This document shows, piece after piece, positions 20,218 to 26,762 of a stretch of 64,000 nt of DNA. A program made the position numbers and the translations under genes. Source of the stretch: Escherichia coli (GTDB lineage: Bacteria; Pseudomonadota; Gammaproteobacteria; Enterobacterales; Enterobacteriaceae); the NCBI RefSeq assembly GCF_003991155.1, contig NZ_CP031293.1, one strand, 5' to 3'. The notes under the pieces are model-generated. The model was not told the DNA's origin. It was given only the letters and a program-made list of their open reading frames with translations, and did not search any database. How positions within the stretch are numbered: position 1 is the stretch's first letter; each line of letters opens with the position of its first letter.

Positions 20218-21297
20218 TTAACTGTTCAAATCAGAAGTCGTATTCCCCGGTAGAACAATATTACTGGCAGCAAGTTCGCCCATGTTGTTGTATATCGCAC
20301 AAGCAGCTTCGATGATGGGCATCGCCAGAGCTGCGCCACTCCCCTCACCTAAACGCATCTCCATATTGAGATAAGGCTCCAGCCCCAAATGCGACAGCGC
20401 TATACGCGCCCCTTTTTCTGCCGACAGGTGAGAAGGAATGAGATACGGTTTGATTGCAGGAGACATCTGGCAGGCTGCGAGCGCAGCAGCATAAGAAAGA
20501 AATCCATCCAGCAACACGGGTAAACCGCAGGAAGCAGCGCCTAACATCACGCCAGCCATTCCGACCAAATCAAATCCACCCACTTTTGCCAGAACATTAA
20601 CGCCATCCTGCGGATTTGGCTGATTCAACGTAATCGCCCGGCGCACAACATCAATTTTATTAGCCAGTTTATCTGTCGGCAGGTTTGCGCCAATCCCAAC
20701 CACTTCTTCAGGATCCCGGCCAGTGATTGTGCTGACTATTGCTGCTGCCGGTGTCGTGTTTGCCATCCCCAGTTCACCTACACCAAACAGCGTGACACCG
20801 TTTTTTGCCAGCTCCCGCGTATAACATATGACGTCCAAAAGCAACTTTTCAGCCTGACGGCGACTCATTGCCGGAGCTGAAGCAATATTGCCGCTACCTC
20901 GTGCGACACGCATGTTGATAAGCCCGGGGATAGGCTCAGCAGTATCAATACCAACATCAATTACGTGGACGTTAGCGCCCGCTTGTGCTGCCAGCACACA
21001 CACGCCGGTTGTTCCGCGGGTCATATTTTCAGCCTGAATGGCTGTGACTTCTTTTGGGGAAATAGCGACCCCTTCCTCCCAGACGCCGTGATCGGCACAC
21101 ATAACCAGTACCGCTTTTTTGCCCACATGCGGTATGCCATTCAACCCCGGCATTCCCGCCAGTTGTACGCCAAGCGCCTCCAGCCTTCCCAGGCTACCAA
21201 CAGGTTTGAGTAACCCGTCAATATGCCGTTGTGCACGCGACATAGCGGCAGGATCGATGGCAGGGATCGTATTCAGTAAATTGGCAAGTGTTTGCAT
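20218..21297 (-). CDS. cobT: Nicotinate-nucleotide--dimethylbenzimidazole phosphoribosyltransferase CobT
   Basis: The ORF is 359 aa ([32 protein letters not shown]...) and lies in the cobUST order. Confidence 0.9.
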
Positions 21298-21308: not shown

Positions 21309-22052
21309 TTATAGCAGTGCCAGCAGGAAGACCAGTTCACCAAGCTCTATGGCTGCTCCCAGCGTATCGCCGGTTTGCCCGCCCAGCGTACGTTTGAGAA
21401 GCTGACCGAGGATGAAAATCGCCACCATCGTCACCACCATAGCAGCCACACCATGCATACCCGGCAATAATACGGCAGCAAAAATAGCGGCTAAGCCGAG
21501 TGTGACGCAGGTTTGTCGCCCATCAATTTTGCCAATGAACACATTGCCAAGCCCTTCTTCCCGCGCATAACGATGACGATACATCAATAATGCGGCAGTC
21601 CCGCGGCTGACCGCACATGCTGCCGCCAGCGATGCAAGGATCGGTTCGCCACGCAGAGCCAACTCGCTTAACACCAGAATCTTTGCCAGTACCACAAAAA
21701 TCAATGCCAGACCGCCGTGGGTGCCTAAACGGCTATCACGCATGATTTCCAACATGCGATCGCGGCTACGTGCAGAAAATACGCCATCACAGGTATCAGC
21801 GAGGCCGTCCAGGTGGAATCCCCCGGTCATCAGCGCCAGCATAAGTACGCTAAACAGTGCCGCCAGTGGTACGTCACACCATGCCTGCAGCACCATGAAG
21901 ACCAGCCCGCTAATCGCGCCAAGCAATAATCCAATCAAAGGAAAAGTAATAATACCGCGAGAATAATGCTCGAAATCCAGTCCCTGGGACCAGCGACGCG
22001 GTACAGGCAGACGCGTAATAAATGAGAGCATCGCCCAAAATAATTTACTCAT
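21309..22052 (-). CDS. cobS: Cobalamin (5'-phosphate) synthase CobS
   Basis: A membrane protein starting at [18 protein letters not shown]. Its ATG overlaps the cobU stop (ATGA, 22049-22052). Confidence 0.9.
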
Positions 22053-22594
22053 TTGATTTTTACTCCAATACACGAAACCACCAGCCATACTTCATTTGCC
22101 GCAGCGGCCAACTGCTGGTTTACCCGCCCGGCAATATCACGAAAATGTCGTGCCAGACGACTCTCCGGCACAATCCCCATTCCCACTTCGTTAGTCACTA
22201 ATACAACCTTTGCGGGGCAACGTTGGCAGGCAGCAATCAACGACTGAATCTCAGCATTAATCGCCTGTTCCATCGCCTGATAATCCCATTCATCAGGGTC
22301 TTTATCGCCGCCATAATCAAACAACAGATTAGTCACCATTGTGGTAACGCATTCCAGCAACACAGCCTCATTCGGGTTAATGTCTGCATGAATTAATTCA
22401 TCAAGATGTTGCCAGCGCTCCACTGTGCGCCAGTGCGCCGGGCGGCCTTTCCGATGATGTTCTATCCGTGCAGCCATCTCATCATCAAGGATTTGCGAGG
22501 TGGCGATATACAGAACCTGTGAAGAGTCCCCAATAAGCGCTTCTGCGTGGCGACTCTTCCCGCTCCGTGCTCCACCTGTCACCAAAATCATCAT
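22049..22594 (-). CDS. cobU: Adenosylcobinamide kinase/phosphate guanylyltransferase CobU
   Basis: The ORF is 181 aa with the P-loop [14 protein letters not shown]. Confidence 0.9.
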
Positions 22595-22727
22595 ACCGAC
22601 TCCTGATTCAATTGTATGATGGTATTCATTGAACAGAACAATGGATCCCCCACCGTTGCTGACCGCAAAACATTTACGCGATTAATACTGCGCGTAATAT
22701 AATTAAAAATCCAGCATTCTCAATCCA

Positions 22728-23165
22728 TTACGAAAGAAGATGGCATTGCGGAATAGCCAGACTTCCTCGTGTTAACGTCCGACAAAATGCGTCATTGACA
22801 GCGGTTTCTCTGGCATGACAGATTTCATTCAGATAATGGATTAATGCTACAGCCCCACCAGCCGGACCAGTCAGCAAACGGGCATTGTGTTCTGTAATCA
22901 AAATTACCGTCGTTCCCTCAGAATGAGCGAGCCATTCTGGTACGGATATCTCGCTTTCAGCTGCTATCAATAGCAGCACTGAATAATCGCTATACGCATC
23001 TGATAACGATTGCACAGGCCCACCGTCAAAAGGCTGGAAATCTTGCTGCCAGTCCTCACCAACCAAACAGGTTATTGGCAATATTTCCGCCAGATGTTTC
23101 GCCAGATCCACATCTCCAGATAAGAGGCAAAAAAGAGCTATCGATTCGGGTTTTATCGTTTTCAT
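22728..23165 (-). pseudogene. cbiG-like N-terminal remnant, all that remains of the cbi operon
   Basis: MKTIKPESIALFCLLSGDVDLAKHLAEILPITC...LLTGPAGGAVALIHYLNEI resembles the Salmonella CbiG N-terminus as I recall it (..VKPESIALFCLTPGG..LLSGHAGGAN..). It sits between the B12 riboswitch and cobU, where cbiA-P would be. Confidence 0.45.
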
Positions 23166-23384
23166 GCCCCTCGCCCTCCACTTAATTTCCTGTAATGGCG
23201 GTCTGGTTGATAAGCCATGAAACAAGATTGCCACACCTTAAGTGCAGCCCTGGTGCCTGTCGGCACTGCGATGAAAGAACTAAATGATGCCGCCATACCC
23301 TGATCCTTTCAGGGTGGTAGGGGTATAAAGACGCGCCTGTACTCTACCGGACGCTTCCGGGCAACCCACTTCCCACCGAAGTTG

Positions 23385-23545
23385 TTGGTATTGACTGACT
23401 GGCTGGTCTTCTGGCTTAGCGTCATCCTCTCCCGACCTTCCCAATCTCGCGATCAGTGGCATTTTCGGGTTTGTCAGCATTACAGCAGCGGGGGCTGCGA
23501 GGGATTTTCACCCTCTTCCCAGGCACAAATGTGCCACACCTGTCA
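23385..23545 (-). promoter_or_regulatory. Cobalamin (B12) riboswitch aptamer of the cbi/cob leader
   Basis: The minus strand reads GCCTGGGAAGAGGGTGAAAATCCCTCGCAGCCCCCGCTGCTGTAA...GCCACTG...AAGCCAGAAGACCAGCCAG. The last element is the B12 box at 23399-23417. These match the conserved cobalamin riboswitch core. Confidence 0.85.
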
Positions 23546-23649
23546 GCGTATGTTATGAGCTGATTTCACTTTTCCCATAACAGGGAAATAACGTTAATTA
23601 TTCATTCCAGAGTTTATTTAAACCGTCCTCTTTTTTTGGGGCATTTACT

Positions 23650-24564
23650 CTATACCGTTTCCATCGCCGCATTATCACTCACTTGCTGTCGATACACCTG
23701 CGGCGTAACCTGATAAGTCTGACGGAAAACTTTGCAAAAATAACTTGTTTGCGAAAAACCTAAATTACGCGCAATGCTGGCGATGCTCCAGTCACTATGG
23801 CACAGTAACTCACGAGCGCTGGCCATCCGTTGTTGGTTTACCCACGCATTAAACCCGATTCCATGGTATTTCTTAAATAACTTACTGAAATAATAAGGGC
23901 TTAGATAAACGTGCGAGGCGACATCTTCCAGACGCAAATCGTCTGATAAATGCGCATCAATATAACGTAAAGCTTTTTTCATTTTATTGTCGTGGGGACC
24001 AGGCGCACGAGTCTGGCGCAACGAATCTGACTGAGATTTGTTCTCTTTAATAACCACAAAATTGAGTTGTTTTTTTAGGCAATTTTCTACAATCAACTTC
24101 AACAAATCCGCAGAGGCCATAACTCTTGAGTAATCCATCTCAGGGACTTTGCGAAATTCATTAAGTAATTCGGGATCTGCCTGCCAGCAATCATCGACAT
24201 TCAGAATATCGACCAAATCGACATCATCATTACGCAGACGAACTTGCCCGCACAATACAAAACCAACTAAATGTCCGGCGATTACCAGTGGAATAGAGAA
24301 ATCGGTTAATCCGGCATGACAGCGATAAATACAAGGCTGATCGGATTTAGAGGCTTCCAGCCCCCCACAACGATCGCTCATGCGACATCGAGTGCTCATC
24401 TGAGGGTGTTGCCGCATCATCTGACAAAATGGAGTGAAGTTAAACAGCTCGGAAATTTCATCGCCGTGAATATTGACCACGACAACCGCAAGGCTGGTCG
24501 CCTGCGCAAAATCCTGCGCGATTTTATTAATGAGTTCTGAATTAAGTGTCGCCGCAGAAATCAT
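23650..24564 (-). CDS. pocR: AraC-family regulator PocR of the pdu/cob regulon
   Basis: The ORF is 304 aa with a C-terminal AraC HTH (ARNLGFSQTSYFCKVFRQ). Its position between the cob leader and pduF matches Salmonella. Confidence 0.9.
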   Translation of the reverse strand: MISAATLNSELINKIAQDFAQATSLAVVVVNIHGDEISELFNFTPFCQMMRQHPQMSTRCRMSDRCGGLEASKSDQPCIYRCHAGLTDFSIPLVIAGHLVGFVLCGQVRLRNDDVDLVDILNVDDCWQADPELLNEFRKVPEMDYSRVMASADLLKLIVENCLKKQLNFVVIKENKSQSDSLRQTRAPGPHDNKMKKALRYIDAHLSDDLRLEDVASHVYLSPYYFSKLFKKYHGIGFNAWVNQQRMASARELLCHSDWSIASIARNLGFSQTSYFCKVFRQTYQVTPQVYRQQVSDNAAMETV

Positions 24565-24766
24565 GATAAAACCTCCCAGTTAATTTATTGTTATAGCAAA
24601 ACAATTGTTTTACATTTAATCTTCACATCATCCTTGATGATTTACTGACGAGAAGCACAAAGGACAATAACAAAAGCCTCCGTGAAGCGGGAGACTTTTT
24701 AATAAGTTCGGAAAGCAGATCACAAACAGTAAAAAAATAAACGTTTATAACTGCCAGATTATTTCA

Positions 24767-25994: not shown

Positions 25995-26009
25995 GGTAAT
26001 GACTCCAAC

Positions 26010-26513
26010 TTATTGATAGTGTTTTATGTTCAGATAATGCCCGATGACTTTGTCATGCAGCTCCACCGATTTTGAAAACGACAGCGACTTCCGTCCCAGC
26101 CGTGCCAGGTGCTGCCTCAGATTCAGGTTATGCCGCTCAATTCGCTGCGTATATCGCTTGCTGATTACGTGCAGCTTTCCCTTCAGGCGGGATTCATACA
26201 GCGGCCAGCCATCCGTCATCCATATCACCACGTCAAAGGGTGACAGCAGGCTCATAAGACGCCCCAGCGTCGCCATAGTGCGTTCACCGAATACGTGCGC
26301 AACAACCGTCTTCCGGAGCCTGTCATACGCGTAAAACAGCCAGCGCTGGCGCGATTTAGCCCCGACGTATCCCCACTGTTCGTCCATTTCCGCGCAGACG
26401 ATGACGTCACTGCCCGGCTGTATGCGCGAGGTTACCGACTGCGGCCTGAGTTTTTTAAATGGCGGAAAATCGTGTTGAGGCCAACGCCCATAATGCGGGC
26501 GGTTGCCCGGCAT
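26010..26513 (-). CDS. insB: IS1 InsB (expressed as the InsAB' fusion by frameshift)
   Basis: The ORF is 167 aa (..[30 protein letters not shown]..). Confidence 0.95.
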
Positions 26514-26707
26514 CCAACGCCATTCATGGCCATATCAATGATTTTCTGGTGCGTACCGGGTTGAGAAGCGGTGTAAGTGAACTGCAGTTGCCATGTTTTA
26601 CGGCAATGAGAGCAGAGATAGCGCTGATGTCCGGCGGTGCTTTTGCCGTTACGCACCACTCCGTCAGTAGCTGAACAGGAGGGACAGCTGATAGAAACAG
26701 AAGCCAC
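26432..26707 (-). CDS. insA: IS1 InsA
   Basis: [51 protein letters not shown]... Confidence 0.95.
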
Positions 26708-26762
26708 TGGAGCACCTCAAAAACACCATCATACACTAAATCAGTAAGTTGGCAGCATCACC

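Follow-up and report, generated by a model that had tools for sequence, protein, structure and literature searches.

Between pocR and cobU, on the minus strand of a 64,000-nucleotide (nt) stretch of an Escherichia coli chromosome (contig NZ_CP031293.1 of assembly GCF_003991155.1; hereafter the window), a cobalamin riboswitch is retained in front of a gutted cbi operon, once a 17-kb cluster for B12 synthesis. We consider it probable, with a confidence of roughly 0.6, that this riboswitch is functional and gates a 44-codon relay open reading frame (ORF) together with a selected N-terminal stub of CbiG (designated cbiG' here), and that this module is linked to the pdu genes. The DNA in question is shared with another isolate: the 1,251 nt that were queried are 100% identical to E. 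coli strain 2016C-3878, whose Prokaryotic Genome Annotation Pipeline (PGAP) annotation already places a "cobalamin riboswitch" and a "hypothetical protein" at these positions.

The Riboswitch Is the Most Conserved Part of the Locus

An initial annotation of the window had pointed to a B12 riboswitch core and a B12 box on the minus strand between pocR and cobU, and the letters that it quoted are present. With Infernal (cmscan), the Rfam family Cobalamin (RF00174) gave a significant covariance-model match at 23384-23558 on this strand, with a score of 109.4 bits as compared to a gathering score of 31.5 (E 1.7e-26), and the match spans the full model (positions 1-189 of 189). The corresponding scores are 105-113 bits in the other Escherichia species and 103-113 bits across all lineages with a gutted operon.

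We aligned seven Escherichia species from pocR to cobS, compared the riboswitch and cbiG' in E. fergusonii as an eighth, and used the fourfold-degenerate sites of pocR and cobS as a neutral yardstick. Among the seven species, 24 of 175 columns are variable in the aptamer and 16 of 90 in the expression platform, while the figures are 178 of 435 for cbiG' and 150 of 217 for the fourfold-degenerate sites. Aptamer and platform thus vary at 14-18% of their sites, versus 69% for the neutral yardstick (p 7e-30 for the aptamer, 7e-17 for the platform), and both are also less variable than cbiG' (p 1.6e-11 and 2e-5, respectively). The same low variability holds in the four loci whose discovery did not depend on the ORF. 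Not a single insertion or deletion (indel) falls into the 265 nt of aptamer and platform; several are present in both flanking spacers. The core and the B12 box are invariant in the seven species, the aptamers are 87-95% identical between Escherichia species, and 40-43 of the 48 pairs of the model are canonical in each of the eight. Compensatory changes were seen in the aptamers of locus L006 and of E. fergusonii; the latter carries 22 substitutions, two compensatory double changes among them, and nevertheless retains 43 of the 48 canonical pairs and scores 112.9 bits.

The platform contains an invariant CAACAACUUCGGUGGGAAGUGGGUUG element, followed by a hairpin at the ribosome-binding site (RBS) formed by ACCCUGA (23315-23309) and UCAGGGU (23303-23297), with the Shine-Dalgarno sequence AAGGA in its loop; the AUG of the old cbiA gene is found directly behind it (23296-23294). 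The RNAalifold consensus comprises this 7-bp RBS hairpin and a CCCC pairing with codons 2-3. The platform is near-identical to the leaders of Salmonella, Citrobacter and Intestinirhabdus with intact operons, and across 13 sequences, some of them from such operons, both the RBS hairpin and the AUGGCGGC start context hardly vary. Directly 5' of the aptamer, UGUUAUGGG (23582-23574) can pair with CUCAUAACA (23559-23551) to give a 9-bp hairpin that has counterparts of different sequence elsewhere (GAG/CUC in E. fergusonii, GUUAUGG/CCAUAAC in Salmonella, AUGAUGA/UCAUCAU in C. sedlakii), a pattern that resembles covariation in a leader helix not included in the Rfam model. Collectively, no other stretch of the locus is as conserved as aptamer and platform across the seven to eight Escherichia species. 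Judged by these comparisons, the riboswitch is under purifying selection, and it is predicted to respond to adenosylcobalamin (AdoCbl).

Deletions in the cbi Operon and in the Spacer behind pocR

Alignment with relatives locates what has been lost. Homology to the leaders of Salmonella and Citrobacter extends in the window from 23562 to 23288 and covers the aptamer, the platform, the cbiA ATG and three codons, so that the first deletion junction lies directly after cbiA codon 3. Homology restarts exactly at the cbiG start (23166-23065 at the DNA level) and ends near CbiG codon 119, the approximate position of the second junction. In the 50-odd relatives with an intact operon that we fetched through PocR, the cbiG start is found about 7.5 kb past the pocR start. 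The initial annotation had described a gutted cbi operon, shaped by at least two deletions and followed by cobU; the two junctions and the cobU start at 22594 bear this out. The 133-nt spacer in front of cobU is colinear with the last 135 nt of Pseudocitrobacter cbiP (z = 3.0, 1 in 300 shuffles), and blastn gives a match over 48 nt (22607-22560); we regard 22598-22727 as a putative, weakly recognizable remnant of the cbiP 3' end.

A third loss had been overlooked. The riboswitch begins 91 nt past the pocR stop codon, as compared to about 320-340 nt in Salmonella, Citrobacter and Klebsiella; hence, some 250 nt between pocR and the aptamer are missing. In the relatives, this spacer carries a promoter-like TTGTCA-16-TAAAAT (locus L014, 11000-11027), and the conserved block AAATTGTCATAGCGCAACAAAATA of this spacer could not be located anywhere in the window, even with up to three mismatches allowed. 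A promoter of the Salmonella type was accordingly not found between pocR and the leader in the window.

All sampled species of Escherichia share this layout (E. whittamii, E. ruysiae, a divergent "E. coli", E. marmotae, E. albertii, a cryptic clade and E. fergusonii), which therefore predates the genus. As reconstructed from these alignments, the ancestor of Escherichia lost cbiA-cbiP in at least two deletions, along with about 250 nt of spacer. What it kept were aptamer, platform, RBS hairpin and the start codon of cbiA, and these have evolved under strong purifying selection ever since.

A Proposed Relay ORF between the Riboswitch and cbiG'

The ORF that starts at the old cbiA ATG (MAASFSS...GGRGA*) owes only its first three codons demonstrably to cbiA. 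No significant DNA homology was detected between 23287-23225 and the cbiA start or between 23240-23166 and the cbiF end (z ≤ 0.9); another target window gave z = 3.1 for the body of the ORF, but it included the cbiG start. In the seven Escherichia species, the ORF is open over 135 nt, free of indels, and ends in ATGA in each. Its variability by codon position (0.45/0.39/0.48) has no periodicity; therefore, it is not the peptide sequence that is selected, but translation that is conserved. E. fergusonii has a 49-codon ORF starting from the same ATG, with an unrelated body (43% identical, which amounts to unalignable) that overlaps the stub start by 20 nt. Three arrangements thus join the riboswitch ATG to the stub: the ATGA overlap (six species and the window), the 20-nt overlap of E. 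fergusonii, and an in-frame fusion in a group of loci that we refer to as the Scandinavium type. A start in a translation initiation region under riboswitch control combined with a stop that overlaps the next start, the hallmark of a relaying upstream ORF (uORF), is found as ATGA in seven species.

Evidence for Selection on cbiG'

The resemblance of the 145-codon ORF to the CbiG N-terminus, already noticed in the initial annotation, is firmly supported. The NCBIfam model NF004463 (cobalt-precorrin-5A hydrolase) matches cbiG' with an E-value of 1.7e-19 and 70.2 bits over profile positions 1-126 of 351, far under the cut-off of 546 bits for full-length equivalogs, and blastx aligns it to residues 1-119 of Citrobacter and Salmonella CbiG at 43-47% identity (E 1e-22 to 1e-25). 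Compared with complete CbiG (CbiG_N, CbiG_mid and CbiG_C; PDB 3eeq), the stub is only the first third of the protein. Codons 1-119 (23165-22809) are CbiG-homologous, while codons 120-145 (22808-22731) form a neutral tail that is without periodicity and as variable as fourfold sites; the tail is possibly an out-of-frame cbiP remnant (weak blastx matches with E about 0.5-0.8; DNA z-score 0.3).

Across eight species, cbiG' contains neither stops nor frameshifts, and all of its indels are in frame. Over codons 1-119, the variability at the three codon positions among the seven species is 0.35/0.25/0.52 (p 7e-5); with the eighth species included, it rises to 0.50/0.31/0.73 (p 6e-10). When the observed substitutions were randomly re-placed in simulations, the probability that no sequence acquired a stop was 0.0007 for the seven species and 0.009 for the four loci found via PocR alone. 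The ratio of non-synonymous to synonymous substitution rates (dN/dS) is 0.32-0.62 for cbiG', as compared to about 0.04 for pocR across Escherichia and 0.15 for cobU. The initial annotation had treated the ORF as debris, a view that these signatures of purifying selection do not sustain. By this comparative evidence, the stub is a gene under selection at the protein level. A pseudogene identity of cbiG' was considered as well and is ruled out by its dN/dS, by the codon-position periodicity over eight species and by the open frame in seven.

A word-indexed protein search with the stub returned Escherichia stubs only; the intact relatives were obtained via the PocR loci. An exhaustive profile search for a wider family of stand-alone CbiG_N proteins yielded E. 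fergusonii only, the other short matches being frameshifted fragments of ordinary CbiG.

Distribution of the Module and Gutted cbi Operons in Other Lineages

The full layout is found in 643 of 5,426 complete E. coli genomes, and pduCDE in 642, while cobUST is present in 5,398 of them, with or without the riboswitch. E. coli strains that lack the module are deletion derivatives in which the loss of pdu has taken the module as well: all that strain K-12 retains of the cbiG' ORF is its last 144 nt, behind an IS5 element, and in other deletion strains a pduV remnant is joined either to the middle of the ORF or to the spacer in front of cobU. The module adjoins pocR and an intact pdu operon in all gutted lineages that were sampled.

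The salvage genes have fared differently. In E. fergusonii (L090/L091, 6472-6698) the riboswitch and the stub are intact, cobUST is lost and ldtA follows directly after the stub; in E. albertii (L085/L086, 4436-5877) both are again intact, cobU is fragmented, cobS is intact and cobT is gone. Cobinamide salvage is decaying within the genus in these two species. The Scandinavium type likewise has an intact riboswitch and stub with no cobUST downstream, nac being the next gene. In its three loci, the cbiA ATG is fused in frame, via about 57 codons, to CbiG residues 3-123, resulting in ORFs of 179-190 amino acids. Within this group, the aptamer is 96-98% identical, pocR 91-93% and the stub 77-85%, and a pair of these loci has codon-position variabilities of 0.08/0.09/0.27 in the CbiG part. 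The stubs of Escherichia and of the Scandinavium type are each nearer to true CbiG than to each other, and no homology was detected between their linkers or between their pocR-aptamer spacers (z = -0.4). An independent origin of the two stubs is the simpler reading of these sequences, although saturation of neutral sites could mask a shared one.

Two further lineages were caught in other states. Pseudocitrobacter cyperus (L039, 10900-13200) has pocR, a full-length cbiP (508 amino acids) and cobUS, has lost cbiA-cbiO, and has no riboswitch; it is an independent case of gutting in which the outcome was reversed. Hafnia paralvei (L065, 11266-17504) combines the riboswitch with a 118-amino-acid cbiA'::'cbiF fusion, a full-length cbiG and an inserted island, an arrangement that is a young version of cbi gutting. 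The decay of cbi is consequently recurrent in Enterobacterales, and the riboswitch is not always kept. The Hafnia insert itself holds two large ORFs on the opposite strand (694 amino acids with a helicase-like motif, and 687 amino acids that look like an ATPase) and resembles a defense island.

Two entries of our locus collection look like contamination in public assemblies: a contig labeled as a Veillonella parvula metagenome-assembled genome (L004) is 99-100% E. coli across the locus, and a 383-bp contig labeled Streptomyces cahuitamycinicus (L082) is 98% identical to E. coli PocR.

Layout of the Locus and Its Surroundings

The minus strand carries, in this order, pduF, pocR, the riboswitch, the relay and 145-codon ORFs, cobU, cobS, cobT, ldtA and a tRNA-Asn gene (Table 1). 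The pdu operon is on the plus strand, divergent from the pduF-pocR-cob side.

Table 1. Features of the pocR-cobT region; positions refer to the window.
Feature	Positions	Strand	Basis or remark
pocR, AraC-family regulator of pdu/cob	23650-24564	-	NCBIfam TransRegPocR (1.2e-166), Pfam PocR domain
Shortened pocR-aptamer spacer, 91 nt	23559-23649	-	contains hairpin 5' of the aptamer
Cobalamin (AdoCbl-type) riboswitch aptamer, including B12 box	23384-23558	-	RF00174, 109.4 bits
Expression platform with RBS hairpin and old cbiA AUG	23294-23383	-	alignment, RNAalifold
Relay ORF, 44 codons	23162-23296	-	from cbiA ATG; TGA overlaps stub ATG (ATGA)
cbiG' ORF, 145 codons	22728-23165	-	NCBIfam NF004463, blastx
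Spacer before cobU, putative decayed cbiP 3' end	22595-22727	-	colinear alignment, blastn
cobU; cobS; cobT, nucleotide-loop assembly and cobinamide salvage	22049-22594; 21309-22052; 20218-21297	-	Pfam CobU (8.7e-63 for cobU), NCBIfam PRK05800, ORFs, PGAP

The divergent control region between pduF and pduA is interrupted by a complete 768-bp IS1 element (25995-26762) flanked by the 9-bp target duplication TGTTCTCTA; from the end of IS1 to the pduA ATG (26864) further downstream it is about 100 nt. Strain 2016C-3878 is otherwise identical but without IS1, so that its pduA-pduF gap measures 510 nt versus 1,248 nt in the window. The insertion may uncouple pdu from PocR in the strain studied here. 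Between pocR and pduF, the small RNA (sRNA) STnc230 (RF02075, 76 bits) is encoded on the opposite strand (24625-24708, plus), a position that it occupies in all Escherichia, Salmonella, Citrobacter and Klebsiella loci scanned. Farther away, yeeO is located between two tRNA-Asn genes (17269-17341, minus; 19090-19162, plus), and upstream of the first of these, isrC, isrK, C4 antisense RNA and EFASI sRNAs cluster on the plus strand at 9832-13825. This phage- or satellite-type cluster suggests a P4-like integrated element.

Discussion

In the mechanism that we propose, binding of AdoCbl would allow the hairpin to hide the Shine-Dalgarno sequence and the AUG, and translation from the old cbiA start would stop; we assign this repressing step because of the homology with the studied leaders of Salmonella cob and E. 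coli btuB. The 44-codon ORF would serve as a translational relay that makes synthesis of the stub B12-repressible. The transcript would probably stem from read-through out of pocR, or else from an unrecognized weak promoter, and in E. coli continued read-through may add a B12-repressible component to the transcription of cobUST. Because the module always stands beside pocR and an intact pdu operon, its position points to a role in B12-dependent propanediol use.

A number of observations weigh against this proposal. Ligand binding, translation of both ORFs and the transcription start are predictions, and a scan of the minus strand between 23559 and 23649 found no promoter-like or terminator-like site, so that transcription of the riboswitch is itself only inferred. 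In a Pfam scan (E ≤ 0.1), cbiG' matched none of CbiG_N, CbiG_mid and CbiG_C, domains for which intact CbiG scores 122, 48 and 100 bits, respectively. The stub has a 7-residue deletion within the CbiG_N region and is without the mid and C-terminal (CobE-like) domains; in the absence of the CobE-like domain and of the rest of the pathway, it therefore cannot be the hydrolase. Its dN/dS of 0.3-0.6 indicates only weak constraint, truncated alleles of 136, 113 and 95 amino acids occur in some E. coli, and its AlphaFold model is weak (predicted local distance difference test score, pLDDT, 63). The best PDB match of this low-confidence model is the CbiG homolog 3eeq (probability 0.99, template modeling score 0.51), which is supportive only. 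The test for ORF retention is biased by four loci (L084, L085, L087 and L091) that came from ORF-based protein searches. The cbiG' ORF is preceded by its own Shine-Dalgarno-like GGAGG and might therefore not depend on coupling to the relay ORF. Finally, the loss of the module together with pdu could be mere physical linkage.

The main competing explanation concerns the salvage genes. The initial annotation had suggested that the riboswitch might have been co-opted to put cobUST under B12 control, and this might be achieved if leader ORFs left untranslated caused Rho-dependent polarity before cobU, with the salvage enzymes being made from the upstream transcript only at low AdoCbl. The geometry in E. 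coli permits read-through, since riboswitch and cobUST are contiguous on the same strand, and no intrinsic terminator between them is conserved across species; a weak hairpin with a T-rich tail (23248-23230) is not conserved either. The need to keep a 573-nt leader translated would explain why both ORFs are open and indel-free. B12 riboswitches ahead of salvage genes are common, and polarity linked to a riboswitch has been documented in other systems (PMC11260477). However, the open-frame requirement leaves the codon-position periodicity of cbiG' unexplained, and no rut-like (Rho utilization) stretch, C-rich and G-poor, is present in 23383-22595, where the C/G ratio never exceeds 1.22. Moreover, cobU is preceded by a promoter-like site of its own (TTGAGA, 22723-22718; 16 nt; TATATT, 22701-22696), within blocks that are conserved across Escherichia and kept in K-12 and in the pduV'-cobU deletion strains, where they would serve cobU without any riboswitch. 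This site is overlapped by a perfect 7-bp hairpin, UUACGCG/CGCGUAA (22697-22674), followed by AUGUUUUG; the hairpin is present in E. coli including K-12, and its 3' arm is not conserved in the other Escherichia species. Lineages without cobUST (E. fergusonii, the Scandinavium type) or with a broken one (E. albertii) still have an intact riboswitch, relay ORF and stub. What stands of the co-option idea is the shared strand and the lack of a conserved terminator in E. coli; as the reason for the retention of the riboswitch it is unlikely. Given the separate promoter region of cobU and the persistence of the module in species without cobUST, control of these genes is probably a side effect, at most an accessory one in E. 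coli.

Alternatively, the element might sense B12 as a 3' untranslated region (3'-UTR) or read-through device on the pduF-pocR transcript, in which B12 would alter the 3' end or the stability of the pocR mRNA and thereby tie pdu induction to B12, the downstream ORFs being secondary. Such a role would fit the observation that, independently in both old gutted lineages, pocR and the aptamer have come to lie within 50-120 nt of each other and the promoter-like block has gone. It would also fit the company that the module keeps: pocR and pdu go with it in all gutted lineages sampled, and the number of E. coli genomes that have it approximates the number with pduCDE. There is reportedly a precedent in Listeria monocytogenes, where a B12 riboswitch next to pocR (AspocR) is said to tie pdu expression to B12; that riboswitch drives an antisense RNA, however, while the E. 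coli element lies downstream of pocR in sense orientation and has kept a translational platform. It is this platform that makes the explanation improbable, since the RBS hairpin, the start codon and the ORF leading into the stub are as conserved as the aptamer and would be needless in a pure 3'-end device; furthermore, the stub bears the marks of protein-level selection, and no terminator-like structure is predicted. That riboswitch and ORFs are inert leftovers which have not yet decayed, the fossil option of the initial annotation, has very little left to commend it: the operon served is gone, most E. coli live without the module and the stub is without a Pfam signature, but neutral sequence at the locus (fourfold sites, the ORF tail) is 60-70% variable across the genus while the aptamer holds its identity and its 105-113 bits, and true decay is there for comparison in the lost riboswitch of Pseudocitrobacter and the decayed cobU of E. 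albertii. The fossil reading is rejected on the conservation statistics of aptamer and platform.

With a riboswitch-gated relay ORF and stub as the preferred reading, a broader scenario can be sketched, to which we give somewhat less than an even chance. Escherichia and the Scandinavium-type group, both of which kept the B12-dependent pdu microcompartment and lost corrin synthesis, would each have independently carved out the first ~120 residues of CbiG, set the resulting stub under the old cob riboswitch beside pocR, and retained it because this small B12-repressed protein had taken on a new function. This might be the binding or handover of corrinoids, or a B12-dependent brake on the expression of PocR and pdu.

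The cob leader of Salmonella enterica is the ortholog of the element studied here, with the same position after pocR, the same aptamer (106.9 bits in L014), the same platform and RBS hairpin, and the same start context. It differs in that biosynthetic genes follow and cbiA, rather than a 44-codon relay ORF, is the first cistron; in addition, the window has lost the upstream promoter-like block and about 250 nt of spacer and 5' leader. In Salmonella, the AdoCbl riboswitch controls translation of cbiA (Richter-Dahlfors & Andersson, 1992; Ravnum & Andersson; both as cited in PMC3050690). The AdoCbl riboswitch of btuB, likewise from E. coli, turns translation off by occluding the ribosome-binding site (PMC3050690). 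It is a member of the same Rfam family but differs in locus and sequence, and it is universal in E. coli, whereas the element described here is limited to the 12% of genomes that have pdu. The closest experimentally tested mechanism is that of Mycobacterium tuberculosis ppe2, where a translational OFF B12 riboswitch is followed by the uORF uPPE2, an AUGA overlap and then ppe2-cobQ-cobU (PMC11260477). There, expression of ppe2 was shown experimentally to depend on the uORF relay, the downstream gene being without a Shine-Dalgarno sequence (PMC11260477). The two systems share a short ORF starting from the riboswitch, the AUGA overlap and relic B12-pathway genes downstream. They differ in that lineage and riboswitch variant are unrelated, that E. 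coli cbiG' has its GGAGG, that a CbiG fragment takes the place of a PPE protein, and that the relay in E. coli is a prediction.

We found no description of this E. coli arrangement in the literature that we searched: PMC12922286 and PMC9220930, in which the E. coli pdu island is treated as a Salmonella-like acquisition, mention neither a second B12 riboswitch nor the stub. This island matters for gut colonization, and the comparisons made here place pdu, pocR, riboswitch and stub in an old layout common to the genus Escherichia, from which pdu-negative strains such as K-12 derived by deletion. A layout of this age and breadth bears on the account of Lawrence and Roth, who are said to have explained the history of cob and pdu by loss and reacquisition. 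It also indicates that selection can maintain a riboswitch whose operon is gone over more than the divergence of one genus, and that part of a biosynthetic enzyme may have been exapted as a protein under B12 regulation.

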